Positions 14,137 through 62,747 of a stretch of DNA of 64,000 bases are shown here, in pieces. This stretch comes from a virus, in the IMG/VR virus record IMGVR_UViG_3300037261_000082, positions 36,178 to 100,177 of that record; one strand, 5' to 3'. The notes under the pieces were generated by a model, which made no database searches, was not told where the DNA came from, and saw only the letters and a program-made list of their open reading frames with translations. The number at the start of each line of letters is the position of its first letter. The first letter of the stretch is position 1. The position numbers and the translations under genes were made by a program.

Positions 14137-14258
14137 GGTAAGCCTCAAAATTAAGTGGTGGGGCACTTGGTTTCCGGACCCCACCGTGCCGGTCATAGGA
14201 TGAACGCAGACGGCAATCTGCGCTCTGGCCACCAAGCTAGGCCAAATCATACTTTACC

Positions 14259-14477: not shown

Positions 14478-14565
14478 GATAGCACCACTGCCCAGACTGT
14501 CAACATAGCCACGAAAAGGGCCAATGCAACTAGAGTAGCCGCTTCATGCAGGATTGTCTTAGCCA

Positions 14566-15544: not shown

Positions 15545-15904
15545 TCAGCCCTGTGCATTATGCCCTCCTTGTCCCTTATGCATACCGAGCCATATCTCGG
15601 CAAACTTTTCGTAATCTTTCTTGGGAATACAGAATGCCCGGCCATCGTCAGTCACGGCATAGATCAACATTCTGGGATTTTCGTGGGCCAGGTACACCGC
15701 CACAGCAAAGGACTTAACTGTGGCTATTTCTGAGCCATTGAAGGTTCCGTATTTCACGATGTTGAAGTGACTTGCCGTACGGAATACCCGTTCTTCAAAA
15801 GCCTCACGGGTTGCCCCAAACTCAGGCTCGCGGTTGCTGGCCGCTAGCCTTAAATGGGTGAGGCGCTGGCTGGGTGATTTGGGTTGGGGGTAAGTGGTTT
15901 TCAT
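15545..15904 (-). CDS. Hypothetical protein
   Basis: ATGA-coupled to the upstream gene. Confidence 0.6.
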   Translation of the reverse strand: MKTTYPQPKSPSQRLTHLRLAASNREPEFGATREAFEERVFRTASHFNIVKYGTFNGSEIATVKSFAVAVYLAHENPRMLIYAVTDDGRAFCIPKKDYEKFAEIWLGMHKGQGGHNAQG

Positions 15905-16206
15905 CGGAAGGCCCCAACTTGCTCAGCAAGGTTGCGCAATTCGTAGCGCGGGGAAAACTGGTCCTTGAGTTTCCCCGTTTCGCGGTCCAGGTGGTCCCTG
16001 ATGCCACAGACGTCATGAAAGAAGTTAAAGTCGTCAGCGGCGAGCAGGTCGCTGAGCTTCAACGGACAGCCGTTTGAGATAACGGCTTCCAGGTCCATCA
16101 TCACGTCCAACTTCTTGCCAAAGTTTGGGAACCGTTTCAAGTAACGATTCGCAATTTGGCTCATCAGAAGTAAGTCATTGTGCGAAGCTTTGAATTGAAC
16201 AGTCAT
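15901..16206 (-). CDS. Conserved phage protein (DUF6874-like)
   Basis: MDL..NGCPLKL..LL.ADDFNF.HDV.GI..HLDR.TGKL...F.PR motif. Confidence 0.7.
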   Translation of the reverse strand: MTVQFKASHNDLLLMSQIANRYLKRFPNFGKKLDVMMDLEAVISNGCPLKLSDLLAADDFNFFHDVCGIRDHLDRETGKLKDQFSPRYELRNLAEQVGAFR

Positions 16207-16264
16207 GGTTCACTCCTATGATTAAGTTTGGGTTAGACCGGGCCGTTAAGCCCGGTCTTGTCTT

Positions 16265-17638: not shown

Positions 17639-17662
17639 AACCTTGCTCCTATGAAGGCAAGT

Positions 17663-18697
17663 TTAGTGAAGCGTGATATCTTGATTCGCAACAGCCCAAG
17701 TAACGTAGGCTGTTGTTTCTGCCAACTTCTTGTCGCGTTGCACGGCGTCGGTTACCGCCACGATCTCCAACTCGCGGTTCGTCTCGCCAATGCGCTTAGC
17801 GTAGGTCACGATGTTGTCGAAGTTCTTGCGATCAGCAAGGCGTCCGAGTGCCGTGACTACGGCATAGCATTCTGACCGTTCGGTAGGCAGCTTCGCAGTC
17901 TTGGGGTTGGCCAGAATGTCCTCGATGTTAGCGAGGGACTGGTACATAGCCACGAAGCTTTCCATTTCCGAGCCAACATCCTTACCTACGAGGGCCACGA
18001 AAGCCTTGTAGCGCAGCCGGGTAGGCATACTGACGTAGACGCCACACTTATAGACCGAACGGGGTGAAGCATAGGCGTTCTCATCCCCCAGCAACTGCCG
18101 GGAGATATGGTCAGGGCGGAATCGCCCAAAGGCCACGATTTCCGGCGCTAGGTTGGTACGTACGCAGTGACCAACCCACGACTCGTGGTCAAACACCATT
18201 GTGTAGTGGGCGAAGCGGTTACGAAGCGGCTTCGGCATCTGCACAACAGCACGGGAGTCCTTAGAACGATTGCCCATGGCCAGGATGACGCAATTATCAG
18301 GGAGGATATAATCCCCAACCTTGCGATCCAGAACCAGTTGCATAGCAACGGCCATCATTTGCATCGTGCCGGTATTGATTTCGTCCAGCACGAGAATAGA
18401 AGGACCGTCGCTTCCGTCCATTTTGGGCAACTCGCCTGGCACGAACCAGTCCGTAGTCTTGGTCTTCATGTTGGGCACCGGAATGCCCCGCATATCCACT
18501 GGCTCACGGATATTAAGGCGGAAGTCAAACTTCTTCCGACTCAAGGTGAGAGCAACCTGGTCTGAGAGTTCCGATTTGCCAATACCGGCATCGCCCCAGA
18601 CCATCACTGCCTGCTTCTGCTCGAAGTGCATGGGCAGTAGTTCAACCAGTTCCCGCGACGTCACGGGGTTCTCGATTTCCATGTTGATTGCCGTCAT
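17663..18697 (-). CDS. MoxR-like AAA+ ATPase
   Basis: GDAGIGKS, LVLDE, MGN, LRNRF, SPRS; start placed after CATAGGAG. Confidence 0.88.
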   Translation of the reverse strand: MTAINMEIENPVTSRELVELLPMHFEQKQAVMVWGDAGIGKSELSDQVALTLSRKKFDFRLNIREPVDMRGIPVPNMKTKTTDWFVPGELPKMDGSDGPSILVLDEINTGTMQMMAVAMQLVLDRKVGDYILPDNCVILAMGNRSKDSRAVVQMPKPLRNRFAHYTMVFDHESWVGHCVRTNLAPEIVAFGRFRPDHISRQLLGDENAYASPRSVYKCGVYVSMPTRLRYKAFVALVGKDVGSEMESFVAMYQSLANIEDILANPKTAKLPTERSECYAVVTALGRLADRKNFDNIVTYAKRIGETNRELEIVAVTDAVQRDKKLAETTAYVTWAVANQDITLH

Positions 18698-18732
18698 TGT
18701 CGTAGCTCCTATGATTAATCTGTTGTCGTGCT

Positions 18733-18930
18733 TTAAGGTGCGGGAATACACCTAACATTGTATCCTTCATTCATAATCCAAGCTTCGTTCCACCACAAAC
18801 CTGCTTCTTGATGGTGCATAAATTTGTGGGCGGCTTCTTTGCACGCTTGCTCTGTTTTGTATCCTGGTTGCAGAGCAGGTTGAGGAGTGCCAAGTCCTCC
18901 TAAAGTTATCAGCACAAGAGTCCATGTCAT
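18733..18930 (-). CDS. Small hypothetical protein
   Basis: CATAGGAG RBS; WTLVLI..C..C pattern. Confidence 0.6.
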   Translation of the reverse strand: MTWTLVLITLGGLGTPQPALQPGYKTEQACKEAAHKFMHHQEAGLWWNEAWIMNEGYNVRCIPAP

Positions 18931-18954
18931 TTTTAGTCTCCTATGGGGTTAAGC

Positions 18955-19857
18955 TTACGCCATAAACTTGGTGACGTCCTTGAGGATCTTCTCGGCAGCG
19001 TCCGCAACCTTCTCGCGGGCGTTATCACTTTCACGCAACTCTGGGGCATCGAACGCACAGAGGTCTTTCTCCATTTTGTCCGCTAGAGTATTGATGACCG
19101 GGTCGTCAGCAAAGTTGAAGGTGCGGAGCACAGGGACGAACTCACGGATGTTATCAACAAGGCTTCCGTAAAGTCGGCCTTCAGTCTTCTCGCCCTTTTC
19201 TGCTGCAGGCTTATAGGCACGCAGCCGGTCAACCATCGTACTGACGAGGGTTGCAGCTTTCTCAAGAGCAAACTTCTGGGCGTCGTGCAGCCCAGCCGCT
19301 AACCGCTTCTGAACGTCCGCTTCAATGTCAGCGAGTTGTTCTGACGCTATGTCACAGCGGAAGTCTGAGGATGGGCAAGGCATAACCGCCACGTCAAAGT
19401 AGAAGCGGTGCCCAATCTGGCTCTGGTCAGGGTAGTCAGCCGGGTCGAAGGCCCCATTGAGGCGCTTCTTGGCAGCCTCCACGAACGTGGGGTAAGCAGC
19501 CACGAATTCCTTGACGGCTGAGGAAAACTCCTCCTTGAGTTTCCGCATCTCATTCGTGTACTCAATATAGGCCACGGCGGGCAGCAACCGCTGGCCGTCC
19601 ATGTCCATCCAAGGGAGTGTCTTGGACCAGTTATACCCACGAGCCTTATTGTGGATATGGGTAATCTTTTCCAAGGCATCCTTGGCCAGCAGCTGCTTGT
19701 TGTAGCGACCAGCGTCGTCCTGCATGCCGTGAGAGGTATGCACGTCGTTCGTCAACTTCTTATCGAAGCGTCGCGCTGACCATTGCGAAATAGTCAACAC
19801 AGTGAGAACCGCCTTTTTGCTAAGGACGGACTCAGCATTCTTGATCGGATTGATCAT
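18955..19857 (-). CDS. DUF3150-like helical protein
   Basis: ISQWSARR.D, TLPW..G.RLLP, F...YP, F...DYP; first gene of the triad with the AAA and VWA genes. Confidence 0.7.
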   Translation of the reverse strand: MINPIKNAESVLSKKAVLTVLTISQWSARRFDKKLTNDVHTSHGMQDDAGRYNKQLLAKDALEKITHIHNKARGYNWSKTLPWMDMDGQRLLPAVAYIEYTNEMRKLKEEFSSAVKEFVAAYPTFVEAAKKRLNGAFDPADYPDQSQIGHRFYFDVAVMPCPSSDFRCDIASEQLADIEADVQKRLAAGLHDAQKFALEKAATLVSTMVDRLRAYKPAAEKGEKTEGRLYGSLVDNIREFVPVLRTFNFADDPVINTLADKMEKDLCAFDAPELRESDNAREKVADAAEKILKDVTKFMA

Positions 19858-20020
19858 GGTGTTAGTCTCCTATGATTAAGCTTTTGGTGCTAGTCGTTGT
19901 AGTGAAGCTTGATGCCGGCAGCACGGATGGCTACTGCCGGGTCGTTCTTAGGGGCTTGACCTTTTGTCGAACCATCGAACCGGGGGTGGGGTGTAGCCCG
20001 CGCTTGCCGACGCGACAGCT

Positions 20021-47518: not shown

Positions 47519-48154
47519 ATGGTAGCCCGCGTAAAACTTAAGACCAAGCCCGCTAAACTCGAGAAGAAGCAATCTTATCCGGGGGCTAGGCGTGGGCCGA
47601 AGTCTACGTACCTCCCTCAATTTGCTAAGGTAGCCGGGGTACTGTGTTCGCGGGGTGCAACAAATGCGGACCTAGCAGACGCTTTTAGTGTTACCACAAT
47701 GACCATCCAGAATTGGATGGGTATGTACCCAGAATTTGATGAAGCAGTAAGGCGGGGCAAGGCTGAGATATTTGACCCCAAGGTGGAGCGTGCTCTTGCC
47801 CAACGGGCGTTAGGCTACTCAGTAGACACTGAGGAAATACGTGTGCTTAAGGACGGCGAGGTTATTCGTGTGCCTGTCCGAAAGCATTATCCCCCAGAAA
47901 CTCTTGCGTGTATTTTCTGGCTTAAGAACCGCAAGCCGGAGCAGTGGCGTGATGTGCAGAACCATCTACATTCAGGCAAGGTTGAGAATTTGACAGCAGC
48001 TGAGTTGTTGGCTGAGATACGGAAGGATGCTACTGAGTTGGGCATTCTTCCGGAGGCACTATTGCATGCTGGTGTTGTTCCGTCTGTAAAAGGCAATCGT
48101 TCAGGTAACGGATTGAGCAACGGCAATGGTGCAAACGGAAGGACTAAGCATTGA
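47519..48154 (+). CDS. Terminase small subunit
   Basis: HTH GAT..DLA..F.V...TI.NW, ERAL..RA.GY, PP...A.IFWLKNR.PE.WRD. Confidence 0.85.
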   Translation: MVARVKLKTKPAKLEKKQSYPGARRGPKSTYLPQFAKVAGVLCSRGATNADLADAFSVTTMTIQNWMGMYPEFDEAVRRGKAEIFDPKVERALAQRALGYSVDTEEIRVLKDGEVIRVPVRKHYPPETLACIFWLKNRKPEQWRDVQNHLHSGKVENLTAAELLAEIRKDATELGILPEALLHAGVVPSVKGNRSGNGLSNGNGANGRTKH

Positions 48155-49371
48155 TTCTAACTTACAAATATCGTCTGCTTCCTTCTAAGCGTCAGCATCG
48201 CGCGCTAGAAGAGATTCTAGAGGCGCAACGTATTTTATATAATTCTGCTTTAGAAGGTAGGATTTGGTACTATAAAAATACTCGGCAACTTCTTAGTCTT
48301 TTTGATCAGACAAAAGAGTTGACTATCTGCCGTCGAGAAATGCCAGAAATGGCGGCTATTCCTACAACAATTCAGCGTTGGACGCTGAAGCATCTTGACT
48401 GGGCTTATCGAGGATTTTTTCGTAGAATTCGCAAAGCGCACAAAACTCCTGGCTTTCCGCGTTTCAAAAGTTATTACCGGTGGCGGTCTTTTGGTTTTAA
48501 CCAGACTGTTGGCAGTTTTCGTTTTGGAGACAACAACCATATTGGTTTTAAAGGCTTTCCAGGTTGGATTCGTATCCATTATCATAGACCTCTGCCTAAA
48601 AAGGCAGATGTTAAGTCTTGTAGCTTTACAAAGGATACTAAAGGTTGGTATATTACTTTTCAGATTAAGTTAATTGAAAAGACTAAATGTACGATTTCGT
48701 CTGCTGTTGGGATTGATCTTGGCTTAAAAGTTTTTGCTTATCAGTCTGATGGAGTAATTATTCCAAATCCAAGAGTAGCACGTAAGGCTGAAAAAGAAAT
48801 GAGGAGGAGACAACGTGCTTTAGCGCGTTGTAAGAAAGGTTCTAAACGGCGAATAAAAGTGCGGGTTAGTTGTACAAGATTGAGTGCTTCAGTCACTAAT
48901 GCTAGAAATACTTGGTTACATCAGCAGTCGGCTCGTATTGTTAGATCTTACGATCTAATTGCGGTTGAAGATTTGAATGTAAAAAATATGCTTCAAAATT
49001 CTACATTTGCACGTTCAATTTCGGATGCTTCTTGGTCGGGGTTTCTAACCTTTCTCGCTTACAAGGCTGAAAGAGCTGGTAAGTACTTAGTTAGGGTGGA
49101 TCCTAAAAATACAACTAAAAAATGTTCTGGTTGCGGAGAGTTGGTTCCCAAGGCTATACTGGAGAGGACCCATTCTTGTCCTGAGTGTGGTCTAACTTTA
49201 GATAGGGACCATAATGCAGCTAGGAACATCTTAGCGGTCGTTGCGGATCGCGGAGAGCATAACGTGGCCCAGTGGGGCGAGCGTGCTCTCGGAAACCTCA
49301 GTTTGGCCTCTAGCCAAAGTTCGAGACGTAACCTTAGTCTTGCCGTTACTAAAACTAGCAACAAACATTAA
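48151..49371 (+). mobile_element. tnpB: TnpB RNA-guided nuclease (IS200/IS605 family, no TnpA)
   Basis: YKYRL.P HTH, GIDLG, AVEDL, CSGC..CPEC zinc finger, DRD.NAA.NI; RuvC D-E-D intact. Confidence 0.92.
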
Positions 49372-49909: not shown

Positions 49910-51634
49910 ATGAGTGTTGCTGCCCCCGCCATTTCAAAGACCATCCCCGCTGAGCGCCTTACAGCATTCAGGGATAAGCTTGCGCGCTATGCCGTAGTGG
50001 AGGCTAAGGAGCGTTGCGAGGACTCTCTTATTGAGTTTCTGCAAGCTGCATGGCCTTACATAGATGCTTCTGCCTATCAGCCTTCATGGGCAATAGAAGC
50101 CATGTGCGACCACCTTGAGGCCGTGACATTAGGGCAGATCCCACGTCTACTAATCAACGTTCCACCCCGTTGTGCTAAGACTTCTTTGTGCTCCATTATT
50201 TACCCAGCATGGACTTGGGCTAGATCAGAAATATCCTTTCTGAGTGGCCGTCAAGTGCGGTTTCTGTGTGCTAGTTATGGCCATGCACTTTCCTTAGACA
50301 GTTCTAATAAGTCGCGGCGGCTATTGCAAAGCCCTTGGTACCAAAAACACTGGCCTGGTCAGATTACATTTCAGCCCGATCAAAATACCAAGATGCAATT
50401 TGACAATACAGCCGGTGGTTCACGCATAGCAACTTCTGTTGGGGGAAGTTTGCTCGGAATTGGCGGCGATATTTTGATAGCCGACGATTTGAATAATACT
50501 GAACAGGTGGAGTCTGAAGCTGAGCGGATGACAGTGGCTAATTTCTGGAATGAGTTCCACTCCACGCGCCTTAATGATCCAAAGCGGTCGGCTATTATTG
50601 CTATTCAACAGCGTTTGCATGAGCAGGATGTATCAGGACTAATTCTAGATAGTGATGAGGATTGGACGCATTTAATGATCCCCATGCGTCATGATGAGGC
50701 TCGTCATTGTGTTACCGTTAAGCTTCCTCAATATGACGACAACGAACCTTGGTCTGATCCACGTATTGATGAAGGTGAGTTGATGTGGCCTGAACGGTTT
50801 GGTGAGACTCAGGTGCGGTCTCTCGAAACTGCCCTTGGCCCATATATGGCAGCCGGTCGTCTTCAACAAAGCCCTACGCCGAAAGGTGGTGGTATTATTA
50901 AGCGTGAATGGTGGCAGCCTTGGGATCAACAGGAGGCCCAGCGTTATGGGTTAGAGTGGACCGGGGAGCGTAAGGAGTTTCCACAGTTTGAATTGGTAGT
51001 AGGATCACTCGATACTTCTTATGGCGAGAAGCAGGAGAATGACTACAATGCCTTGACGGTGTGGGGCGTCTGGATTGATCGTAATAAAAATAGACGTGCT
51101 ATGTTGATGTTTGCCTGGGCTAAGCGGTTGCCCCTACACGGCAAGGTAATATCTGCGTTGCCTAATGAAGCCAAGGTCAATTTTGAGCAGCGCCAGCGAG
51201 AACAGTTTGGGTTAATTCAATGGGTTGCGGATACGGCAAAAAGGTATAAGATTCGACGGTTGCTGATTGAGAATAAGACGCGAGGGCGTGATGTGGCTAA
51301 TGAGATCAACCGTCTTTATGCAAGAGAAAATTGGGGTGTAGAATTATTGGATCCGGTTGGGGATAAGGTGTCACGTACTCATTCAGTTGTGCCCTTGTTT
51401 ACCGATAACGTGATTTGGGCACCGGATACAAAATGGGCAGATGCTGTAATTGCAAATAGTCAAAGTTTTCCGAAGGCTGCGCATGACGATTTGCACGATA
51501 CCGTAACTCAGTTTCTCAATTGGTCCCGGGAGAACGGAATTTTGTTGAGGGGTGATGAGATGAGTGCTGCACTAGAAGACGAACAAGCGTATAAGCCGCC
51601 TCAAGATTCAGTAGCACGAATGTATGGGGTCTAG
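49910..51634 (+). CDS. Terminase large subunit
   Basis: INVPPRCAKT, G.GGD..IADD, QRLHE.D, QQ.P.P..G, DT, IE.K, FP...HDD..D. Confidence 0.93.
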   Translation: MSVAAPAISKTIPAERLTAFRDKLARYAVVEAKERCEDSLIEFLQAAWPYIDASAYQPSWAIEAMCDHLEAVTLGQIPRLLINVPPRCAKTSLCSIIYPAWTWARSEISFLSGRQVRFLCASYGHALSLDSSNKSRRLLQSPWYQKHWPGQITFQPDQNTKMQFDNTAGGSRIATSVGGSLLGIGGDILIADDLNNTEQVESEAERMTVANFWNEFHSTRLNDPKRSAIIAIQQRLHEQDVSGLILDSDEDWTHLMIPMRHDEARHCVTVKLPQYDDNEPWSDPRIDEGELMWPERFGETQVRSLETALGPYMAAGRLQQSPTPKGGGIIKREWWQPWDQQEAQRYGLEWTGERKEFPQFELVVGSLDTSYGEKQENDYNALTVWGVWIDRNKNRRAMLMFAWAKRLPLHGKVISALPNEAKVNFEQRQREQFGLIQWVADTAKRYKIRRLLIENKTRGRDVANEINRLYARENWGVELLDPVGDKVSRTHSVVPLFTDNVIWAPDTKWADAVIANSQSFPKAAHDDLHDTVTQFLNWSRENGILLRGDEMSAALEDEQAYKPPQDSVARMYGV

Positions 51635-51637
51635 GTT

Positions 51638-51838
51638 ATGAAGAAGCTTCCCTGGCGTGTGCGGGTTAGGTTAGTTGTAGAAGGTTGGGTAGATATAGAA
51701 GCCTCTACTGCAAGTATTGCAGAAGTAGAAGCGGCTAAGCTGCCTAATGTTATTTCTGTATTTAGGGCATCAGCTACTTTAGCAAATAAGGTGGCAGGAG
51801 CAGAAGCACCAGCCGGTGTGCAAGAAGATTTATTTTAG
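51638..51838 (+). CDS. Hypothetical protein
   Basis: 66-aa ORF following terL. Confidence 0.55.
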   Translation: MKKLPWRVRVRLVVEGWVDIEASTASIAEVEAAKLPNVISVFRASATLANKVAGAEAPAGVQEDLF

Positions 51839-54800
51839 TTAGTGTTGAGTAGATCGATAATCCCAAGACCATGATGCGCGATATGGAAAACAACGGCGTG
51901 TAGTAGCCCCTTGGTTCCGCTGAATTTCATTCATCGCATTGATCTGAGTGAGCGTCACAATCGGCCTTTGATGTTGAAAGTTATAGGTTAGCGCGTTCAG
52001 TTGTCGAGATAGTGGCTCTTTGGGCGCTTACATGGCCCGAGATATTCCCAGCCGCGCCGTGCAAGTTCTTGTGGCGTAATCGGCTGTGCCTCTCCGATGC
52101 AATGCCACACATTTCCAAGCCACTCTGCTATTCCAGGCTTGCTTGATCGCTCAGAATGAAGCCAATGGTAGGCATCCATATTGAGCATGTCGGCGGGTGG
52201 CCAGGTTCCTGGCATCGTGTGCATTGCGGTTTTGCGCAGCGACATTTGGTGGCCTCTACTGTTCCAAAGCTTCACGCGCGATCTTGCGCATTTTCCACGT
52301 CTGAGGCTCATCAACAATCGCGGTGAGGACCGCTCGCAACCGCTGACATTCAACTATGGCGTCAGCGAGCGTCATTCGGCCATATCTGATCTGTGCTTCT
52401 GCGGCTTCCATTGCCCGTCCTCAGTTGTTCGGTTTGAATAAGCGGAATCCTGTGACAACTAATTGCCGCAACAAAAGTCGCAGCACGATTGATCGGGTTT
52501 GCAGTAGGCGCGGTTCGGTTTTTCCTCAGTCGGGCCACCCGCGTCGTTGTTCTCGATCAGGTCCGCTATGGCCTCAGCCTCAGTCGCCCCGGTGCCGGTC
52601 ACGCCTTCCTCCATCCCGTCATAGTACGCCAGCCAATCAAAGCGGCGGATCGGGATCGGCGGATAGACATACTCGGTGACGATTTTCACGGCGGGCCTAT
52701 TTCTCCAACGCGGCGATTGCCGCATCTGCATAAATAAAACACAGGTCGCAAGCCGCAACCGGATTGTGTGGGTAGGCGCGGCGCTGCTCAGGCGTGTTCA
52801 TTGGCCACGGCTTCCCTTGGCAGTCGGGCCGCTTTGCCCAAATCGCTCGGGCGACCATTTCTCGCGGCGTGAACTTTGATTCCGTGCTCTCGTCGCCTGT
52901 TGCACTTGTAGTGTGCGAGGACAACATTTCCCTCTCCCATATGGCCTCCGTCGCGGCGACGCTTAACGTGCTCAAAGGTTGCAAAGTCTCGCGTTGGCAT
53001 TCCGTTCGGACGGTGCTTGAGCTTCATTGGCTTCTGGCACCAGTGGCAAAGACTGCGTTGCTGGTCGAAAAGGCGCTGTCGCCAAGCATTCTTTCGTGCA
53101 GCAGTCGGAGACATTCCGTGCCTATTCTGACTTTGGAGGGGTGAGGAATTTTTCTAGGATGTAAGCCTCGATGGTTACGGAGGCGGCGGGAGAATATCCC
53201 CTGGCCTTGATCTCGATAGATTGGGTGCTGGACGGGTTTTGCAAAGCGGCCCGAACCACAGTTTTCAGCTTTTCATATTCTTCCTGCTCATAGCTCATGT
53301 TTGCGGGCCTAATCCTTCAACGCGGCTTCAACGTCCGCGAGCTTCTGTTCGACATGCGAAATCCAAGCATCGATGGCCTCAAGAACGGTTGGCTTCGGCT
53401 CGCAACTCCAGACCGTGCAGGCGCAAACTGGCTTGTCGGTTTTGGCCAGTCCGTCACAGACGATTGACGCAAGCCAATGGTCGCGCAGGACGCGGCGCAA
53501 TGGGGTAAGGGCGGCTTTGTGCTTTTCCCATGCGGCGTCGATCATCTCGTTTTCATCGGGGGTTAAGGGGCGTTCCATTTCGGGCCTTTACTGACTGGCT
53601 AGAGGGTTGAAGATCGGCGGGTAGCTGCCGAGCGGCATTCCGGCGGCGGTAAGGCCAATGATTTCCCCATCGCGGTAGACGACTGACGGTTCCAGTTCCG
53701 ACACCCACAAGCCGAGCAATGTACGTAATGTACATTCATCGCGCCGCATCTTGGCCTCGACAGCTTGCTCGATGATGCGTTTCACGGCGGCCTCTATTGA
53801 CAAGTTTGGGGTTGGTTTTTGAGATAGCCTCTTACGTTCTCGGCGCGAGATCGGTAATCGTTAGCCTGCTCCATCAATTTTGCGGCTTGGACCTCAAGGC
53901 GCTTTGCGGCATCCTCTAGGTATTGAGCGCGAAACTGCCAATCCTCTCGTTCTGTCATGGCTGCGGCCTACTCTGACAATTCGCGCATGGCTATCATGGC
54001 GGCGCGGGCTAGGGTGCGAGCGTATCGCTGCGCACTTTCATCTTCCTCGGCCAGTCCGCAAACCGGCAAGGTGCTGCCCGTGTAGCGAGCGCGGTTGATC
54101 GCATTGGCAACCTTGTCCACGGCAGCATCGGTGATGGTCTGCATTGGCGGCCTCTATATCCAGATTGTTCAACGCATTTCGTCGTAGTCGAGAAAGTAGC
54201 TTTCGCCGCACACATCGCAGCGGTAGCGTTCGCCCTCAAAGCCGCCGCCGACTTCCTTGAGGTTTGGACACTGCGACCAGTGACCCAAGCCCTGCGGATG
54301 GTTCGGTATCGGCGTAAACACCGGCTCGCACCCCGCACTCTTTTTCGCTGGATCGCCTTTGATCGCCATCGGGGGGGGGGTAATCCTTCAATCGTGTCCG
54401 TGTTGTTTTTGGTACTCGGCAACTTGCCGAAGAATAGCGAACGCGCCATCCGATATGGATGTGCCGGGCCAAGACAAGAGTGCTGCCACCATCGCAAGAC
54501 GGAAGCTTTCTGGCCCGTATAGGTCGGGGGCGATGCCGGGCTTACGCTTTTTCATCGGGGCTCCTTTGACAATCTGTTAGGCGTAGATAACGAGAGCGAC
54601 TAGACCGACAAAAACAGCGGAGCAAAGTGCGGCGGTAAATGATCCTAGCGCCCATCCGTTCACGCGGAACGTCCAGTGACTTGTCGAGTAGTCCGCGATG
54701 CTGCTGATGGCCGCCGTCGCCACGCCTACCATTAAACTGCCGACGACCCAAACTATCCAGAGTTTTACAGGCAACGGCATGGCGGGCCTTATTTGACAAA

Positions 54801-55159
54801 ATCGGTTAGGGACTTTTCCACTTCGGGCCGCGACATGATTGTGGGCTTCCCGTAGAGGATCGCTTCCGCATCAATAATTACGTCCCACATCGCGCTCATA
54901 CTTCCTACCGTAGCTGCTTTGCGTCGGGCGCGGTTGATGTGATCGACTAATTCTTGATCGGTCATGGCTTGATAATCTGTTAAGCGACTCGATGGGGTAC
55001 AGGTTTGGGCGGCGCGGCAGGTCCCGGCGGAATGCCGGTCACGTCAGCGACGGCAAGATTGATGGCCGCATGAATTTCGTATTCAAGCTGATCGCGCAGC
55101 AAACCCTTGGCATATCGGTCGGCCACTTTCTTCGCCTCGGCTTGCGCGTGGAATGCCAT
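51839..55159 (-). other. Leftward array of 16 short genes with AGGCC(C)GC junctions
   Basis: ORFs: 54980-55159, 54789-54965, 54577-54780, 54388-54555, 54169-54369, 53968-54144, 53794-53958, 53588-53785, 53309-53578, 53122-53298, 52788-53114, 52697-~52887, 52459-52689, 52256-52411, 51997-52245, 51839-51958. Confidence 0.8.
52788..53114 (-). CDS. Small HNH endonuclease (array member)
   Basis: CHWC..ATFEH...R.DGG....N.VLAH..CN. Confidence 0.75.
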   Translation of the reverse strand: MSPTAARKNAWRQRLFDQQRSLCHWCQKPMKLKHRPNGMPTRDFATFEHVKRRRDGGHMGEGNVVLAHYKCNRRREHGIKVHAARNGRPSDLGKAARLPREAVANEHA

Positions 55160-55234
55160 TGCTGCGGCCTCCACTAACTATCTAGACATACTGTGTTCCG
55201 AATTACGGAATAGCTTAAGCAACGTAGGTTACGC

Positions 55235-55263
55235 TTGATTTGTTAACCTGTAAAGCCTATTAT
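55235..55263 (+). promoter_or_regulatory. Sigma70 promoter giving a probably leaderless transcript
   Basis: TTGATT-N17-TATTAT, then 6 nt, then ATG at 55270; no SD sequence. Confidence 0.65.
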
Positions 55264-55269
55264 CGTTAA

Positions 55270-55836
55270 ATGGCTGTTGAAGACACCAGATCATACCTAA
55301 ATCCATTGAAACCTAGTTGGAGTGAAGTCTCTCAACGAGAGAAGCTTACTGGAGAAATATACTGTGCAGATCAGCGCGAAGCATTATTGCGATCTTTACG
55401 AAAAGGCAGTGTTGTTGAGGTAGTAGAAACTTTCTTATTGGCTAAAACAGTTGGACGTGTTGATGTTAGAAAACGTGACTTGCTGGCAATTGTTGATCAA
55501 ATTGAAAACCGAAAAGGAGTTATTCGAGAACTTGCTACAGGACATCAATCTAATATACCCAAGCAATGGCGTCAAATGCAGGCGCGGGCGTTTGCTCTTA
55601 TTTCTAGTTCTGCACGAGGAAAGAACTCCGCAGTTAATGGTAAACAATCTAAAGGCAGGCCCCATAAAACATATCATGAAGACCAACTTTCTGTTATGGA
55701 AAAAGTTTGGTTTAGTCGGCGGTACAAGACAATTGCGGAACGTATGTCTTATCTAGGCGGAATTGGGATTAAGGTAAAACGTGGGTGGATGTATAGTCGT
55801 TTTGGAACCGTTGAAAATCCCCGAGTAAAACTTTAG
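55270..55836 (+). CDS. Serine-resolvase-fold protein with substituted catalytic residues
   Basis: LLRSLRKGSVVEV, RDLLAIVDQIE.RKGVI, GRP hinge and HTH-like tail; YARVS replaced by YLNPL and LDRL by TFLL. Confidence 0.65.
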   Translation: MAVEDTRSYLNPLKPSWSEVSQREKLTGEIYCADQREALLRSLRKGSVVEVVETFLLAKTVGRVDVRKRDLLAIVDQIENRKGVIRELATGHQSNIPKQWRQMQARAFALISSSARGKNSAVNGKQSKGRPHKTYHEDQLSVMEKVWFSRRYKTIAERMSYLGGIGIKVKRGWMYSRFGTVENPRVKL

Positions 55837-55845
55837 GAGTTTGCC

Positions 55846-56184
55846 TTGCGCGCCATAGTCTGCGGAAGCCGCAACTACAAGAATTGGGAACTGCTTTATC
55901 GCGTTCTCGATGGCCTTGGAATTACCCACGTCATCGAAGGCGGCGCGCGTGGGGCGGATAGATTGGCGAGGGAGTGGGCACAGTCTCGGCTCATTCCTAT
56001 GACGACATTTGATGCGAATTGGGACACTCACGGGAAAGTCGCAGGACAGATTCGCAATCAGCAAATGCTCGATGAAGGAAAGCCTGAATTAGTGGTGGCC
56101 TTCCCCTTGGAGAAAAGCAGCGGAACATGGGATATGGTTCGCAAGGCCAGAGCCGCTGGCGTCAAAGTTGAACTGGTTGAATAA
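55846..56184 (+). CDS. YspA/SLOG-family (DUF2493-like) protein
   Basis: VCGSRNY, IEGGARGAD.LA..WA, AG.IRN..ML, AFP, GT.DM. Confidence 0.88.
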   Translation: MRAIVCGSRNYKNWELLYRVLDGLGITHVIEGGARGADRLAREWAQSRLIPMTTFDANWDTHGKVAGQIRNQQMLDEGKPELVVAFPLEKSSGTWDMVRKARAAGVKVELVE

Positions 56185-59100
56185 TTAGGAGCGCACCGTG
56201 CATACTTGGAACCCACCCGTAGAAATGACAACAACCGCGCCGCAGGGCGTGACAGAATTAAAAACCATCATGCGCGACGATAATAAAATGGTAGGCGTAA
56301 CAAAACTTGGCCGTACCATTCGTTCTGCCCTGTCCGAACTACGCGAAATCCACACCGATCTACCTTTTGCGATATTGACCGTAATTTTATCTGATGAACT
56401 GAATAAATAGGAGATTTTAGATGGCATGGAAATGTAAGGAATGCGGGAAGCATAGCGGCGGGCCGTACTGCGATGAATGTGGAGCGCCACCGTCCTGCAA
56501 ATCAGGCAAGAGATAAAGGAGTTTGCATGACGATAGACAGCACGATGGTTCCGGCGGGTGGCACTCGCAAGGGCGATAAGGTTTACGACGCGCGAGGCCG
56601 ACTGATTGAAATCTATGAGGGCGAGTGGCGCGTCGTGGTTGATGGTGGCCGGTCAGGCTGGTGGCGTTTCAACGAACACTACGACCGCGACGGCTACTGC
56701 GACAATCCCGCCCGTGGGTACTGAATATAGAGGAGATTTTCGTGTCTGCATTGGATGCGCGCCAACAGGCTTTCCGAGAAATGGATCGGGGGGTGTTCAA
56801 CATCCTCAAACTGGCGCTCGCCTATGACATGACCGATGATCTGTTTATCCAAGTCGCACACGACATTAGAACCACGCTGCCGCCGAACGCCCGCAAGGAG
56901 ATGCTGGCCTACACAAAAGAGATTGAGATTTTTGTGAGTGGCCGCCAATGGCAGAGGGGATGGTGGTTTTGCAAAAAGACAACTTGGAAGCACATCAATG
57001 CCGAGATCACCTTCAATCCGTACAAGGCAAGTTTGAGTTGCTGGACTGATCCAAAAGAACCGGGCGGAATTGTCTGCTTTCAATAGTCACAAGAGGAGAA
57101 TTGGCGTGCTTATCGACGATCCCAACAGTGCGAGCGGCAAGCGCGTCATCGCGGACAACCCAGGCTGCATGGCACCAGACGGCGGCGAATGCTGTCCTCA
57201 ATATCTAGCCCTCTCGCAAGAAAACGAGAGGATGCGTGAAATTCTAATTTGGCTTGATCGAGTTGGCGGACTTGGACTGGAAACTCATGGGCGCATTCGC
57301 AAGGCGCTCGGTTTCAAATCCGCTGCTGACGATTGAATATAGAGGAGCAAACGAATGTCTGACCTTGAGGACGGTCTAGTCGCCGCAAAAAAGGCTTTGA
57401 TTGATTGTGGTTTCTGTGGTGCTGGTGAACATGGCGCAGGCGATCCTGAGATTAACTCCATCGATAGGGTTATTGGTGCGCTGCGTTCTGGTCGTCGCAC
57501 AGCAACACTTGAAATGATGGGTTTCCCAGATGCGGCATCTTTTGCAAAAGACCCAACTCAATGAGTGTGCCAATGGCCGTCAAGGTAGTCTGGGTGCTTA
57601 CGTCGATTTGGTCGGTTCACAATGCTCCTGAGCATCACTATCTACAGTTCGCTTCTCACGACGAATGTAGAGACGCTGCAATTCAAGCAATCGAAGTGGG
57701 CGGCGCAAAGTTTGCGTTCTGCACTGAGGGATACGCGACGCCACTTCAATATCTGCCGTATGAACGCTGAATAAATAGGAGATTGTCGTGTCACCTGGCG
57801 AGAAGCGGCGGCGTAAAGCAAAGCGAGAGCGCGAGCAAGCAGCCTATGCCGCCGCAGTATCAGCGTTGCCGACCGGCTCTTGCTGTTGCAACTGCGCTCA
57901 TCGCGGTACGATGCCACTTTCGCGCAAACCGATCTGCACGCTCGACAGCGATTTTGCCGGCTACACAGTGGTTGAGTTGATGCACGTCTGTCCGCGATGG
58001 ACTACTAAATAAACAGGAGCGACCGTGGCTGAGTATCGTTGGATTGGAGACTTCGGCGGATACGGTTGGGCTATCTGCCCCACATGCAGCGGTCGTGGTC
58101 ACTGGATTGGAGTAGCCACAACAACGGCTGCTGATTGTCGTACCTGTCACGGCAACGGAAAGGTGTCATGGGGGCGCTGGCCGAACTACAATCCAACGTC
58201 AGAGCATGATGAGGGAACGAGAATGGTCCCTCCGCCATTGGCGATAACAAAATAGGAGTTTTTCGTGTGCGACTGCAAAATCTATTGCCAAGATACAGGC
58301 AACGGAGATTGCCGCTATATGGTCAAGTGTTCGAAGGGAACGCCGAAGTCTGACTTTGAGCATGTGCCGATGAAGGCCGCGATCGATGATACAGTCTACT
58401 GCATCCGCTGTGGACGGGAACTAGGTCTAGCGAATTAGGAGCAACCAGCATGGCCGTCGATTTTTGGACCGATGTTGACCTCTACGAGCCGACTTGCGTC
58501 TTGCGCCGGTTCGGCATTGGAGATGTTCTTGAGCAGCAATGGCGCAAAGCAAAGATAGGACGGCTCGGCCACGTCGAGGGATTTTATTATGAATGGCGTC
58601 CGGTGCCGCACGTTTACGGTGAACCAAAGTCAGAATAGGAGATTGAAAAATGATCTATGTGCACCCCACCAAACCGCGCGGATTAATCGCCCGTTATGCG
58701 ATGGCACCGCTGGTGTTTTTGCAAGTCCTCTACCTGCATCCGAAGAATGGCATTGGCTATGCCGCTCGTTGGGCGCGGCAGAGCACCATCGTTCCCAATG
58801 GCGTGTTCCCAAATTAGGAGCCGACCATGAGTATGGCAGAATATGAAATCCCGCGCCGCGTCTGCCTTGATCGAATGACGGAAGCCGAGTTGGCAATTCG
58901 CCAAGCCGTGATTGAAGTCGAGAAGGTTGGTGCAGACGTTCGACTAACTGACGCCGTGATATTGCTATCGGCTGCACAGACGCGCGTAGCTGACTACGTT
59001 GATCGTGTCCCCGGCCTACGCACTGTCCCGCAACAGCTTCAAGAGAATTAGGAGCGCAGACATGAGCCGCAGCGATACCGCGATAGTGGCCTACGCTATT

Positions 59101-59481
59101 TTTGTCGGCATCAATATGTTGGGGCTGTGTGGTATGCTGTATTTTCGGTTTACGATAGCCAACTAAGGAATTACAGATGCGCGAGGCTCACGACATACCG
59201 TTTAAGGGCTGGATACCGCTCAACGCTTTTCTGTGGGTGGCCGCTGGCGCTGCGATCTGGCTTGCGCTGCCTTACATCATCAGGCCGTTTATTTAGGGGC
59301 AAATTCCGTGGTCACGAAAGAAGAATGGGACGCGCTAGATAAGAAAGTTAAATCGTGGCTCGATTTTCGCTGCCAACGCGAGCTAGAGGAATCTGCAAAG
59401 CGGGTGAAAGATGCGGCGCAGAAACTTCACGATGATCTGCGGCCCGATCCAGAGATTCTACGAAAGCCGACAACTATTTAA
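55846..59481 (+). other. Rightward array of 17 short genes with AWW(T/G)AGGAG junctions
   Basis: ORFs: 55846-56184, 56198-56410, 56421-56516, 56527-56724, 56742-57086, 57106-57336, 57355-57564, 57561-57770, 57788-58012, 58025-58255, 58265-58438, 58450-58638, 58650-58817, 58827-59051, 59062-59166, 59177-59296, 59308-59481. Confidence 0.85.
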
Positions 59482-59534
59482 GGAGCGCGGCAATCAATAA
59501 GGGCTGCCATTTTAACTCATTCCCAAGCCAGTAG

Positions 59535-59563
59535 TTGCTTATTTGCCGTTTTGAGCGTATGAT
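59535..59563 (+). promoter_or_regulatory. Sigma70-type promoter
   Basis: TTGCTT-N17-TATGAT; same hexamers as the promoter at 30023. Confidence 0.6.
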
Positions 59564-59678
59564 CATTACTTGCGGGGCTTGCACAAGTTCTCACACCGCA
59601 ATGCGGTAGCATCCGAAAATTCCCAATTGAATTTCGCAATTAGTTTGTCCCATAAAAGAATTATGAAAGGGTTGCATA

Positions 59679-59894
59679 ATGGATTTCAAATCCGTAACTA
59701 GTAGCAATATTGATGCTGTAGCTCATGATCCGAAAACAAACACTCTCCATGTGCGTTTCAAAGGTGGCGGTGTTTATGCGTATCAGGGTGTTGATGCAGA
59801 AAAACATGCAGCCCTGATGAATGCTGCTTCAGTTGGTTCATATTTGCATGCCCACATCAAGGGCAAACATGCACACTCGAAGATGGATGGGTAA
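59679..59894 (+). CDS. KTSC domain protein
   Basis: V.SSNI.AV.HD....L.V.F..G..Y.Y.GV.......L..A.SVGSY....IK. Confidence 0.9.
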   Translation: MDFKSVTSSNIDAVAHDPKTNTLHVRFKGGGVYAYQGVDAEKHAALMNAASVGSYLHAHIKGKHAHSKMDG

Positions 59895-60191: not shown

Positions 60192-62747
60192 ATGAGCAAC
60201 GTCTTCCCCCTAGACACTGGCCAGAACTATCGTCAACCCGGTCCTGCACCCTTAACGGGGCAGGACATTACTGTTATTACTGAGGGTGATGGTGCACCTC
60301 AGTTTGACCAGGAGACGGGCACAACCCAGATTGAATTGCCGGATGGTGAAGTCACTATCAGCTTTGGTCCCCCTGAGCAGCCCAAGAAGGACTCCAAGTT
60401 TGACGATAACCTAGCCAATAAGCTGTCTGAGGCTGAGTTGTCTGTCATAGCTGAGAAGCTCTTGATGGGCATAGAGCAGGATAACCAGTCCCGTTCGGCG
60501 TGGCTTGAGAATATGAGTGCAGGCATTAGTCTGCTAGGCTTGGAGATTAAGAACCCTCGTGGTGCTGCAGCGTCTGGCGCTACGCCAGCTGAGGGAACTA
60601 GTACGGTTGATCACCCTTTGCTCTTAGAGGCTGTGTTACGGTTCCAGGCTAATGCTAGGGGTGAGTTGTTGCCTTCCGACGGCCCAGTGAAGGTGCGTAA
60701 TGACGGCGAAGCCAATAGTCTTTCTGATCGTCTGTCCCAGGCCTTAGAAAAGGATATGAATCATTATCTGACTAAGGTTGCGAAAGAGTACTATCCAGAT
60801 ACGGACCGGATGCTGCTGATGCTAGGCTTCAGCGGCATTTCTTTTAAGAAGGGCTATCACGATCCAATCAAGCGGCGTCCTGTTATTGCCTCTATTGATG
60901 CGAAGGATTTGATTGTCTCTAATGCAGCAACTGATATTGATGGCGCTGGGCGCGTAACTCATCGTATCATGATGCGTCCTTCCGTATTAAAACGCATGAT
61001 GTTATTAGGTGCTTACCGTGACATTGCGTTGCCTGTGGCTGGTCTACCTCAAATCAAGAATCCTGTTGAGGCCAAGATTGACGTTATTCAAGGTATTGCC
61101 CCGCCTACGTATGTAGAACCTACAGACCAGGATAGAGAACTGTACGAGTGCTACTGTGAAATAGAGGTGCCGGGCTTTGAGCACGAAATGGATGGTGAAG
61201 CGACAGGCTTGCCACTGCCATATAAGGTCACGATAGATCATGAAGCGAGACGCATTCTTGAGGTCCGCCGGAATTGGACTGAGGGTGATGACTTCTGTCT
61301 TCCTCGTAATCGCATCATTGCTTATGTGTTTATTCCTGGTCTTGGCTTCTATGGCATTGGGTTGCTCAACATTCTGGGTAATGCTACGAAAGCGGTTACA
61401 GCCGCATGGCGGCTGATGATTGATGCGGGCATGTTTGCCAACTTCCCAGGCTTCCTTTACCTTAAGCAACTCGCCAAGCAACTTACCAATCAGTTCCGTA
61501 TTCCTCCTGGTGGTGGAATGCCTATTGATACCATGGGCAACGACATTCGTGCGTCAGTTATGCCCTTGCCGTACAAGGATCCAAGTGCCGTATTCATTCA
61601 GTTAATTGAGAATATTGCCACCACAGCCCAGCGGGTTGGTGGTACTGCTGAAATGCAGATAGGCGAAGGCAAGCAGGATGCCCCTGTGGGCACAACGCTG
61701 GCGCTAATTGAGCAGGCTACGAAGCTTATGTCAGCCGTGCATAAGCGACTGCACCAAGCCCAGGGCCAAGAGTTTGATATGTTGAAGTCTTTGTTGATGG
61801 AGGATCCCGAGGCGTTGTGGCGACATAACAAGAAGTCTGCTGTGTTGGCCCAACTCACGGCGGAAATGGGGTTGCAGCCCCTTACAAACGCCCAGGACGG
61901 TGCAGAGCTAAGGCAACGGGCATTGTTCCTTACTGCCTTGCAGGACTGCGAGCTAGTCCCGGCTGCCGACCCCAATACAAGTAGCCAGACCGAACGCTAC
62001 CTGAAGGTGGTGGCCATGCGGCAAATGGCTGCCACGAACCAGAATATCGACTTGAATAAGGTTGATGAGAAAGCCTTCCACACGATGGGCGTGGACAATC
62101 CGGAAGACTTCTTTAAGCCACCACCGGATCCAAATGCACCACCGCCCCCGCCACCGCCAGAACAAGTTACGGCTATGGCTACAATGACGGCTGCGCAGGC
62201 TAGGCTGACGGATAGCCAGACGAAAGCAATGGAGGCTAAGACCAAGGCTGCCACGGCCCAGTCCGACGCTGCCATCAAGGCACAAGAGTTGCAGTCTAAG
62301 GAGAAGATTGCTTCGCTGGGTGTGGCCCGTGAGTTGGTCATCCACAATGACGATAAGGCTATGGCTGAACGACAGCTGGCTCAGGAGCATATGGGTCGTG
62401 CTGCTGACCGGGCGCACGAAGCACAACAGAGTGGGGCTGATCGTGCCCATCAGGTACAACAGACGGGGGTTGATAATAATCAGCGCTCGGCCGATAGGTT
62501 GCATGCCCTTGCTCTTGCCCATATGGGGCATCAGGCTGCATTCCGGCAGAAGCAGAGTGATCAGCAGCATGGTATAGCAACAGCTGTACTAGGACATCAG
62601 GTTACGTCACAACAGAAGGCTGCCGATCGTCAAAGTAGTATGATGCAACAGGGCGTAGCGCAAGGTCATGAAGCTACACAGAGTGAGTTGGACCGTCAGC
62701 ATCAGTTGGCGCTGGCAGCGGCTAAGCCTGATGGAGTTGCACCATGA
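60192..62747 (+). CDS. Portal protein
   Basis: HPLLLEA..RFQA.A..EL.P..GPV, PG.GFYG.GL, LIDAG...N.PG, APVGTT.ALIE; long coiled-coil tail; downstream of terL. Confidence 0.85.
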   Translation: MSNVFPLDTGQNYRQPGPAPLTGQDITVITEGDGAPQFDQETGTTQIELPDGEVTISFGPPEQPKKDSKFDDNLANKLSEAELSVIAEKLLMGIEQDNQSRSAWLENMSAGISLLGLEIKNPRGAAASGATPAEGTSTVDHPLLLEAVLRFQANARGELLPSDGPVKVRNDGEANSLSDRLSQALEKDMNHYLTKVAKEYYPDTDRMLLMLGFSGISFKKGYHDPIKRRPVIASIDAKDLIVSNAATDIDGAGRVTHRIMMRPSVLKRMMLLGAYRDIALPVAGLPQIKNPVEAKIDVIQGIAPPTYVEPTDQDRELYECYCEIEVPGFEHEMDGEATGLPLPYKVTIDHEARRILEVRRNWTEGDDFCLPRNRIIAYVFIPGLGFYGIGLLNILGNATKAVTAAWRLMIDAGMFANFPGFLYLKQLAKQLTNQFRIPPGGGMPIDTMGNDIRASVMPLPYKDPSAVFIQLIENIATTAQRVGGTAEMQIGEGKQDAPVGTTLALIEQATKLMSAVHKRLHQAQGQEFDMLKSLLMEDPEALWRHNKKSAVLAQLTAEMGLQPLTNAQDGAELRQRALFLTALQDCELVPAADPNTSSQTERYLKVVAMRQMAATNQNIDLNKVDEKAFHTMGVDNPEDFFKPPPDPNAPPPPPPPEQVTAMATMTAAQARLTDSQTKAMEAKTKAATAQSDAAIKAQELQSKEKIASLGVARELVIHNDDKAMAERQLAQEHMGRAADRAHEAQQSGADRAHQVQQTGVDNNQRSADRLHALALAHMGHQAAFRQKQSDQQHGIATAVLGHQVTSQQKAADRQSSMMQQGVAQGHEATQSELDRQHQLALAAAKPDGVAP

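Follow-up and report, generated by a model that had tools for sequence, protein, structure and literature searches.

Small genes, mostly of unknown function, are carried as cassettes in hypervariable islands between the core genes of T4-type phages, where insertions, deletions, replacements and duplications end in a motif repeated at the gene boundaries (Arbiol et al., 2010, PMC2839356; Comeau et al., 2014, PMC4122927). A PeSL cassette of this kind consists of a sigma-70 promoter and a terminator hairpin around a gene that forms its own transcription unit, and mini-circles have been demonstrated (PMC2839356). Cluster K mycobacteriophages carry start-associated sequences (SAS) with the consensus GGGATAGGAGCCC ahead of their genes (Pope et al., 2011, PMC3203893). 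We describe here an island of tiny genes (51839-59490) in a 64,000-nucleotide (nt) stretch of viral DNA, positions 36,178 to 100,177 of the IMG/VR record IMGVR_UViG_3300037261_000082, which we call the window. Two divergent arrays of small genes lie on either side of a control region and a gene for a resolvase-fold protein of 188 amino acids (aa), and almost every gene boundary carries a short stereotyped sequence, the joint. The initial annotation, made from the sequence alone, had proposed an integron-like platform of single-gene cassettes built on a serine-recombinase-fold protein. We find that the protein has lost its catalytic residues and that the joints appear to be the endpoints of single-gene duplication and replacement in related arrays.

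The window is the last 64 kb of a phage genome assembled as a single 100,177-bp contig, the ends of which overlap by 127 bp, indicating that the genome is circular or terminally redundant. Sixteen open reading frames (ORFs) of 34-108 aa run leftward (51839-55159) and 18 run rightward (55270-59481), the latter comprising the 188-aa gene and 17 ORFs of 31-114 aa, and both sets diverge from the 110-bp region 55160-55269. This confirmed the two arrays, the control region and the borders drawn by the initial annotation. Array ORFs were defined by reading the sequence and translating candidates, while the genes outside the arrays, used as the comparison set, were the output of a crude gene caller. 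Spacers of 7-24 nt separated neighbours at 28 of 32 array boundaries and at 19 of 118 boundaries elsewhere (p = 7e-14), and overlapping neighbours were rarer in the arrays (2/32 vs 35/118, p = 0.005). TAG was the stop codon of 16 of the 34 array genes, compared with 29 of 129 genes elsewhere. The G+C content of third codon positions (GC3) was 0.56 and 0.615 in the arrays and 0.465 in the backbone, so that the arrays are GC-richer and their base composition is foreign to the backbone; the spread in GC3 between cassettes also exceeded sampling (p = 0.005 and 0.049).

The island lies between two conserved gene pairs, terL with a 66-aa gene on the left and a 71-aa gene with the portal gene on the right. 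The terL gene (49910-51634) has relatives in IMG/VR at 58-62% identity, two of them on complete contigs of ~100 kb (L001/G001 and L006/G002), and the portal gene (60192-62747) matches Pfam SU10_portal. Homologs of the two border genes are 1.0 and 1.9 kb apart in L001 and L006, with other genes between them, and in L003 and L004 ~9.4 kb of yet other genes adjoin terL. In the full genomes G001 and G002 and the partial terL relatives, we detected no homolog of any of the 34 array genes and no DNA match to the 7.8-kb island, and a search of cultured phage records found no similar or near-identical DNA. By these comparisons the island is a hypervariable hotspot between core genes, with accessory content that is specific to the lineage.

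In these respects the island resembles a PeSL region, with small and mostly unfamiliar genes, a short repeated motif at each boundary and a hypervariable location between core genes. Unlike PeSL cassettes, in which the repeat is a promoter and a hairpin, the repeat here is a stop codon/ribosome-site joint within a polycistronic operon, and spacers of 7-24 nt are too short for either a promoter or a terminator. Inside the arrays neither promoter-like sites (6 vs 7.5 expected) nor terminator-like sites (14 vs 9.9 expected) rose above chance in scans, of which the promoter scan used only a consensus that may not be the host's.

We then analysed the joints themselves. In the rightward array the stop codon overlaps or abuts AGGAG, with the recurrent sub-families TGAATA(A/T)A(T/G)AGGAGATT, AATTAGGAGC and AGGAGCGACCGTG. 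Leftward joints take the form (GTCA-N2-4)-stop-AGG-CC(C)GC-start, and two are of the GAAGGATTA type. All nine rightward TAGGAG positions quoted by the initial annotation exist, and the island has 9 of the 30 plus-strand copies in the 100-kb genome; AGGAG is found 3-11 nt before the start of 14 of the 18 rightward genes, compared with 28 of 129 genes elsewhere. The proposed leftward motif was also borne out, as GTCA-N2-4-AGGCC occurs four times in the whole genome, always in the leftward block, which holds 7 of the 11 minus-strand copies of AGGCC(C)GC as well. When the rightward joints were aligned on AGGAG, several upstream positions held ~0.9 bit, compared with ~0.1 in the other AGGAG genes of the phage, and near-identical joint pairs (at least 13 of 18 flank positions) numbered 3 vs 0.25 expected in column-preserving shuffles (P = 0.0015). 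The joints therefore carry information beyond a stop codon plus a Shine-Dalgarno (SD) sequence.

This information is conserved at the nucleotide level, and not as a shared protein tail, because the string TGAATA(A/T)A(T/G)AGGAGATT, present in four copies, holds stop codons in all three frames and is read in different frames by the genes upstream, one ending at TAG and three at TGA. In the leftward array, TTGAAGGATTA is likewise read in different frames by upstream genes, and the GTCA element, where it falls within coding sequence at all, occurs in each of the three frames. One perfect 16-nt string, CCAAAGTCAGAATAGG, closes one gene in each array, comprising the end of that gene and the start of the SD of the next.

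Comparison with SAS showed that the rightward joints, too, are asymmetric AGGAG motifs placed 3-8 nt before the start, in one orientation, at non-structural genes. Both often include the upstream stop codon, conserve positions that do not pair with rRNA and have the core TAGGAGC in common. Unlike in cluster K phages, the 13-bp SAS consensus is not present here, only the TAGGAGC(C) core with different flanks; several dialects occur, including the leftward AGG-CC(C)GC and AAGGAyTAGCCCC, which lack AGGAG; and nearly every gene of two divergent arrays carries a joint. The host and phage lineages also differ, and related arrays provide evidence of joint-to-joint duplication. No ESAS-like 17-bp inverted repeats were seen.

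A second lineage-specific block of the same phage, at ~10400-19900 on the minus strand and missing from the relatives G001 and G002, has a start motif of its own. Five copies of (C)TTAATCATAGGAG are found at 14777, 15230, 16222, 18715 and 19876, preceding genes of 64-457 aa, some of them large, and these are not tied to upstream stop codons. To have stereotyped start regions is thus a wider habit of the accessory modules of this phage, as with SAS.

A metagenome scan yielded two loci, L069 and L070, that encode a homolog 36% identical to the 188-aa protein. L070 forms one end of G006 (IMGVR_UViG_3300028800_000099, GC 0.625), a complete viral contig of 63.9 kb, the terL of which has no detectable relation to that of the window, and L069 is a contig of 3.3 kb. 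The homolog takes the same position as in the window, at a divergent control region, in each of them. It is flanked by short-ORF arrays with joints of the same style and different genes, which was the main check suggested by the initial annotation, with five leftward tiny genes and at least nine rightward genes in G006 and at least eight leftward tiny genes in L069. Leftward joints in the two contigs read AGAAGGACTAG(C/T)CCC, with eight copies in the 3.3 kb of L069. In the three G006 joints checked, the upstream gene stops in frame at TAG, so that its protein ends in Lys-Asp, and the L069 joints read in the same way. The window joints GAAGGATTAGGCCCGC and GAAGGATTACCCCCCCCCG are of this leftward type. 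Rightward joints read (A)CTAGGAGC, and the left and right operons keep distinct joint styles in G006 as in the window.

Similar joints were found with other genes. G007 (IMGVR_UViG_3300048785_000055), a 45.6-kb viral contig reached through the 114-aa gene R6 of the rightward array, carries an array of ~15 small genes that uses the window joint strings AGAGGAGATTTTCGTG, AAGTCAGAATAGGAG, CTGAATATAGAGGAG and AGGAGCGACCGTGG; as AGGAGCGACCGTGG(C) is also present in G006, AGGAGCGACCGTGG occurs in three phages. The window and G007 arrays have 22 strings of at least 11 nt in common, compared with 4.2 in shuffles, and the six longest (14-16 nt) are all at joints. Arrays of unrelated genes in other phages therefore share joint strings of 14-16 nt with the window. 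A pattern scan of IMG/VR with TGAATAWAKAGGAGATTK gave 28 single matches, about what we estimate for chance, and a scan with AGAAGGACTAGCCC gave 84 contigs, of which only G006 held several copies. From the pattern-scan contigs, L116 was picked afterwards by its degenerate joint copies; its array of small genes, with AAGGACTAGCCCC(C)G joints, lies upstream of head genes.

Related arrays also revealed where sequences begin and end. In G006 a 112-aa gene is present twice, with exact identity over 371 nt, from the TAGGAGC of its own joint through the next TAGGAGC, and unrelated flanks. In G007 a 164-aa gene has been duplicated internally over 514 nt at 99.8% identity, from AGGAG to the next AGGAGC. 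The platforms of L069 and G006, consisting of control region and protein gene, are 90% identical in DNA (dS, the synonymous divergence, 0.29), and despite this their flanking arrays have no common sequence; the right-hand limit of the homology is exactly at the end of TTAGGAG, and its left-hand limit lies just upstream of the first ribosome site of the leftward array. Joints thus appear, from sequence comparison, as the endpoints of single-gene duplication and replacement in related arrays. As in PeSL regions, indel and duplication endpoints fall in the motif, in G006, in G007 and between L069 and G006, with none seen within the population of the window phage. Crossover repeats of 6-17 nt fit short-homology recombination as well as they fit a dedicated enzyme.

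The ends of these contigs provided further observations. In the first ~930 nt after its contig-end repeat, G006 encodes a 266-aa protein with a CxxxCxxC motif (GCGHKCAYCY) that suggests a radical-SAM enzyme. This is the last gene joined to the rightward array and is preceded by a TAGGAGCGAAAAC joint, as is the duplicated cassette. L069 has a tRNA-Pro(TGG) at 3263-3340 on the opposite strand, 35 nt beyond the TTAGGAG at the end of the dead-resolvase gene, in the place taken by the rightward array in G006; on so short a contig, it could represent either the end of a prophage or a tRNA gene of a phage. No tRNA genes were found in the 64-kb window.

Our preferred reading, to which we give about an even chance, is that the island consists of translationally coupled accessory operons, with joints that act as short-homology crossover points and a dead resolvase that acts as regulator. 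Two back-to-back polycistronic operons would be transcribed from one short divergent control region. At each joint the stop codon, within or next to the SD core and followed by a fixed short spacer, would couple translation of the two neighbours. Joint strings of 6-17 nt, present at every boundary and in other phages, would provide the crossover points, and single genes would be duplicated, lost or replaced there, as in the PeSL shuffling of T4-type phages. The first rightward gene, resolvase-derived, non-catalytic and under purifying selection, would encode a protein that binds DNA and regulates the divergent promoters. We infer from these arrangements that translation is coupled, that general or phage functions carry out the recombination and that the protein is a regulator. 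The most cautious description is one of translationally coupled accessory operons with joints like SAS.

Alternatively, these may be ordinary phage early or accessory operons, a possibility that we take seriously but rather doubt. The joints would then be only strong ribosome sites with coupled stops and no role in recombination, the dialect would derive from the donor lineage or the host ribosome, and breakpoints at boundaries would reflect selection against broken genes. AGAAGGA and AGGAG are complementary to the 3' tail of 16S rRNA, SD sequences of the TAGGAG type are used elsewhere in this genome, and the (C)TTAATCATAGGAG motif of the second island precedes large genes without being tied to stops. 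Arrays that share almost no genes and an array that is stable over years are also in keeping with ordinary operons. However, identical joint strings of 14-16 nt that extend through spacer and start, with AGGAGCGACCGTGG in three phages, exceed what ribosome pairing needs, and upstream genes differ in the frame in which they read one and the same joint string. Moreover, all four endpoints of two independent duplications lie at AGGAG(C) cores, and the breakpoint between L069 and G006 falls exactly after TTAGGAG though dS is only 0.29.

Several results weigh against the preferred reading. An all-against-all tblastx of seven arrays returned one weak pair, the 76-aa gene R7 of the window and a leftward-array gene of G006, which implies that exchange among these phages is rare or that the similarity of the joints is convergent. 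The window itself has no duplicated cassette, and the G006 contig ends inside the duplicated cassette, so that the downstream link of the second copy rests on the closure made by the assembler. The copies of R6 in the window and G007 are old (dS 1.6), and their flanks therefore say little on precise breakpoints. P0125, a 65-aa metagenomic protein, matches R7 at 86% over its first 36 residues and then diverges; since it is related to only the first half of R7, breakpoints are not confined to joints. The suggestion of the initial annotation that homology would end at the AGG core thus held for the two duplications and the L069/G006 breakpoint and failed for R7. The consensus scan found no sigma-70-type promoter for the leftward operon.

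The same is true of the population data. The phage occurs in peat and permafrost metagenomes, in 14 runs that belong to 11 studies. Contigs from four other runs, representing four studies and the years 2018, 2020 and 2025, match the island identically wherever they cover it, with no rearrangement, deletion or alternative order in 51839-59490, and the reordered arrays that the initial annotation had envisaged did not appear; assembled contigs, on which this check relied, hide rare variants, and in X9 and X10, two runs of low depth, only the parts covered by contigs were interpreted. The sole alternative junction in the run contigs is a skip of the TnpB gene upstream of terL. One contig of run X6 omits 1254 nt (window 48108-49363) and has 34 other letters instead. 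The omitted segment holds a solo TnpB (IS605 OrfB-type) gene, 48151-49371, between terS and terL, and TnpB is thus an insertion polymorphism in the phage population.

The 188-aa protein, the gene of which has its TAG stop within TTAGGAG, was examined by structural modeling. An AlphaFold model made from the family alignment had a predicted local distance difference test score (pLDDT) of 94.5. The top Foldseek matches were Tn3 and gamma-delta resolvase (E = 2e-5), with Hin, Sin and Gin next. VIA-align superposed the model on the gamma-delta catalytic domain with a Z of 14.1 and a root-mean-square deviation of 2.0 A over 104 residues, and full-length alignments spanned model residues 4-186, in a register where model residue 5 equals chain residue 2. 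The order of domains, a resolvase catalytic-domain fold, a long E helix and a C-terminal helix-turn-helix, is that of the small serine recombinases (Tn3 and gamma-delta resolvase, Sin, Hin, Gin). Taken together, the three methods indicate that the initial annotation was right about the resolvase fold.

Unlike these enzymes, the 188-aa protein has lost its catalytic residues, which in gamma-delta resolvase we take to be Ser10, Arg8, Arg68 and Arg71. In the structural register Arg8 corresponds to Asn11, Ser10 to Leu13 and LDRLGR to TFLLAK, so that all four are replaced. The family consensus, Y-x-N-P-(x)-x-P and LLA, shows the same catalytic losses, with R-x-S-T only in rare fringe members, and the active-site loop of the family contains no alternative conserved nucleophile. 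As the catalytic Ser and Arg are missing here and family-wide, the protein is not a canonical recombinase. Another register, in which Gln22 of the family would equal resolvase Gln14 and make Arg16 and Ser18 catalytic, was rejected by the structural alignment and by the family register, where distant members align as GY-x-R...Q19...L23.

Sequence searches gave a similar picture. No Pfam family, PF00239 (Resolvase) included, matched the protein at E values up to 10, and PF00239 was absent from the 64 aligned family members and from the whole phage genome (control positive in 12 of 14 genomes). Searches of PDB sequences with the protein and the family profile returned no resolvase, only weak homeodomain-like matches to the C-terminal part. 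An exhaustive HMMER search recovered 122 representative relatives (clusters at 50% identity), of which P0001 is 75% identical to the 188-aa protein. No relative was found by tblastn in phage records, in IMG/VR scanned with the protein, or in GTDB genome contigs scanned with the family alignments A5 and A3; the alignments A4 and A6 recovered only G006 from IMG/VR. The ratio of nonsynonymous to synonymous divergence (dN/dS) between the L069 and G006 copies was 0.12, indicating purifying selection.

Could the protein nevertheless recombine the joints? We regard a true site-specific cassette machine as very unlikely. The resolvase-fold protein would, at a non-canonical site or with a nuclease partner such as a T5orf172/GIY-YIG-like fusion domain or the HNH gene of the leftward array, capture, excise and reorder cassettes. 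In its favor, members of the family stand at the head of divergent arrays in two phage backgrounds that are independent of each other, and a unit excised and then reinserted at joints would give just such duplications. A MUG113/T5orf172 domain is found at the C terminus of about nine of the 64 aligned members, and the L116 array is adjoined by a T5orf172-like gene and by a small gene that may be ribbon-helix-helix-like. In addition, the G007 array is headed by an intact-looking serine recombinase (L161 1360-1986) with the canonical, active-looking motifs GYARVSTEEQ and RLDRLARS. However, the four catalytic residues are replaced and no other conserved nucleophile lies in that loop, neither PF00239 nor PF00589, the tyrosine recombinase family, is found in the whole 100-kb genome (for PF00589, control positive in 14 of 14 genomes), known crossover sites of serine recombinases differ from the joints, which are short, asymmetric and variable, and the population contigs contain no variant forms. 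Nor is the role of recombinase given to the protein by the initial annotation supported by the same joints in L116, which has no resolvase-like gene within its 6.5 kb, and in G007, where they lie beside an ordinary active-looking resolvase.

A broader proposal, which we consider improbable, is that the joints are dedicated crossover sites of single-gene exchange across unrelated soil and peat phages. The stop/SD joint would serve as attC, and resolvase-derived proteins, dead or alive and sometimes fused to GIY-YIG-like domains, would organise or target the process from the head of the arrays, in a phage counterpart of integrons. The 188-aa protein may organise recombination, given its fixed position, the GIY-YIG-like fusions in its family and the live resolvase in G007.

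The island has some features of an integron. A platform of regulatory region and recombinase-fold gene adjoins single-gene units, and cassette content differs completely between close platforms. The units may be promoterless, with one promoter-like site in the control region and none above chance inside the arrays in the consensus scan. Unlike integrons, the genome has no tyrosine recombinase and no attC-like imperfect palindromes (~60-140 bp), which the short spacers could not accommodate in 28 of 32 cases, and no inverted repeats were found at gene boundaries in the window, in agreement with the initial annotation. Arrays lie on both sides of the platform, crossovers coincide with ribosome-site joints and the recombinase-fold protein is without catalytic residues. 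Of the integron-like platform first proposed, the hypervariable island and the breakpoints at joints stand, while the dead active site and the presence of joints without the protein speak against the remainder. Related phages did not carry the same genes in the same order, breakpoints did not fall at random and the motif was informative; as a whole the proposal is partly supported, for joint-bounded breakpoints and duplications in relatives, and not for a canonical recombinase, rearrangement in the window or genes shared across arrays.

We consider the 188-aa protein most likely to be a DNA-binding regulator of the divergent promoters and not a DNA cutter. Its gene sits at a divergent promoter region, as does tnpR at res, where resolvase acts as a repressor too, and the regulatory role is suggested by analogy with Tn3 resolvase, which represses tnpA and tnpR there. 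The promoter-like site of the control region ends 6 nt before the ATG of the 188-aa gene, with no SD after it, and the mRNA may therefore be leaderless.

A related possibility, in our view unlikely, is that the joints are recognition sites of a trans-acting factor that defines a regulon. Such a factor could be a translational regulator, an endoribonuclease like T4 RegB, which acts on GGAG, or a DNA-binding protein, possibly the dead resolvase, that acts at each gene boundary like that of the stoperators in mycobacteriophage L5. The joints resemble cluster A stoperators in position only, and repressor binding is putative. Positions that do not pair with rRNA, CCCC(G) or the CC(C)GC spacer, and GTCA before the stop, are conserved, and the left and right operons keep different joint styles in the window and in G006. 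The TTGTCA and TTATCA of leftward joints are similar to small serine recombinase half-sites. However, the GTCA element is missing from G006 and L069 joints though the protein is homologous, the joints are not dyad-symmetric, unlike resolvase sites, and L116 has joints without the protein. A parallel argument for a trans-acting factor has been made for SAS (PMC3203893).

Most array genes belong to no family. PHROGs matched only an HNH, a SLOG/YspA and a zinc-finger family among 30 small proteins (last four rightward ORFs excluded), and a homolog search with an 89-aa leftward gene returned only itself. The 3' end of the HNH gene overlaps the next ORF, of 34 aa, by 14 nt. Of the tiny genes, at least R6 is real and old, as the copies in the window and G007 have a dN/dS of 0.057 at a dS of 1.6. 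The host-takeover module of Bacillus phage SPO1, like similar early-gene clusters, is a run of some two dozen very small genes of unknown function, the ribosome sites of which are unusually strong. The arrays are similar to it as runs of tiny genes of unfamiliar function with strong ribosome sites, and differ from it in their unusual location between terL and the portal gene, in joints common across phages and in joint-bounded duplications.

Table 1. Positions in the window of the two arrays, their borders and individual elements.
Feature	Coordinates	Strand	Basis
Conserved 66-aa gene after terL, left island border	51638..51838	+	tblastn matches in L001, L003-L006
Leftward operon, 16 tiny genes, 34-108 aa; GC 0.56, GC3 0.615	51839..55159	-	sequence reading
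HNH endonuclease gene in leftward array	52788..53114	-	Pfam PF01844; PHROG HNH families
Joint allele CCAAAGTCAGAATAGG, leftward copy of perfect 16-nt string	53121..53136	-	inverted repeat I5; 13 nt also match G007 array
Nine-C run between GAAGGATTA joint and ATG of 66-aa gene 54169-54369	54371..54379	-	sequence reading
Divergent control region, 110 bp, with palindrome TTCCG-AATTA-CGGAA	55160..55269		sequence reading
Promoter-like TTGATT-17-TATTAT, ending 6 nt before ATG 55270	55235..55263	+	consensus scan
188-aa resolvase-fold protein, degenerate active site, GC3 0.28	55270..55836	+	fold model, family alignment
Rightward operon, 17 tiny genes, 31-114 aa	55846..59481	+	sequence reading
YspA/SLOG-family gene, first rightward cassette	55846..56184	+	PF10686 at 2.5e-15; phrog_289
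114-aa gene R6, common to G007 as single gene	56742..57086	+	88% aa identity; DNA homology only 56743-57086
76-aa gene R7	57106..57336	+	weak relation to G006 leftward-array gene; N-terminal half common to P0125
Joint allele CCAAAGTCAGAATAGG, rightward copy of perfect 16-nt string	58624..58639	+	inverted repeat I5
Non-coding spacer, last cassette to conserved 71-aa gene	59482..59678		sequence reading
Conserved 71-aa gene before portal, right island border	59679..59894	+	tblastn matches in L001, L003, L004, L006

Two further observations were made within the arrays. The tract of nine G on the plus strand at 54371-54379, which is nine C in gene orientation, could change length by slippage, and contigs of run X6 break nearby. 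Two unrelated pairs of similar joints, one per array (52693-53320, D4/D11, and 56703-57347, D5), have an equal start-to-start spacing of 612 nt, which is probably a coincidence.

How phages gain and lose the small genes of unknown function in their hypervariable regions is a long-standing question, for which direct support for linkers has come mainly from PeSL in T4-type phages. In the arrays described here, the repeated unit is the translation joint itself, which is common word for word to unrelated peat phages and at which single-gene duplications end. Start-associated sequences and modular shuffling, both so far unexplained, are thereby connected. Members of the dead-resolvase family, with its 122 clusters, could serve as markers for arrays of this kind in metagenomes. 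Should the joints prove to be true exchange sites, they would provide a simple rule for finding accessory cassettes, many of which are likely to act in host takeover or counter-defence, and a design for gene swapping.

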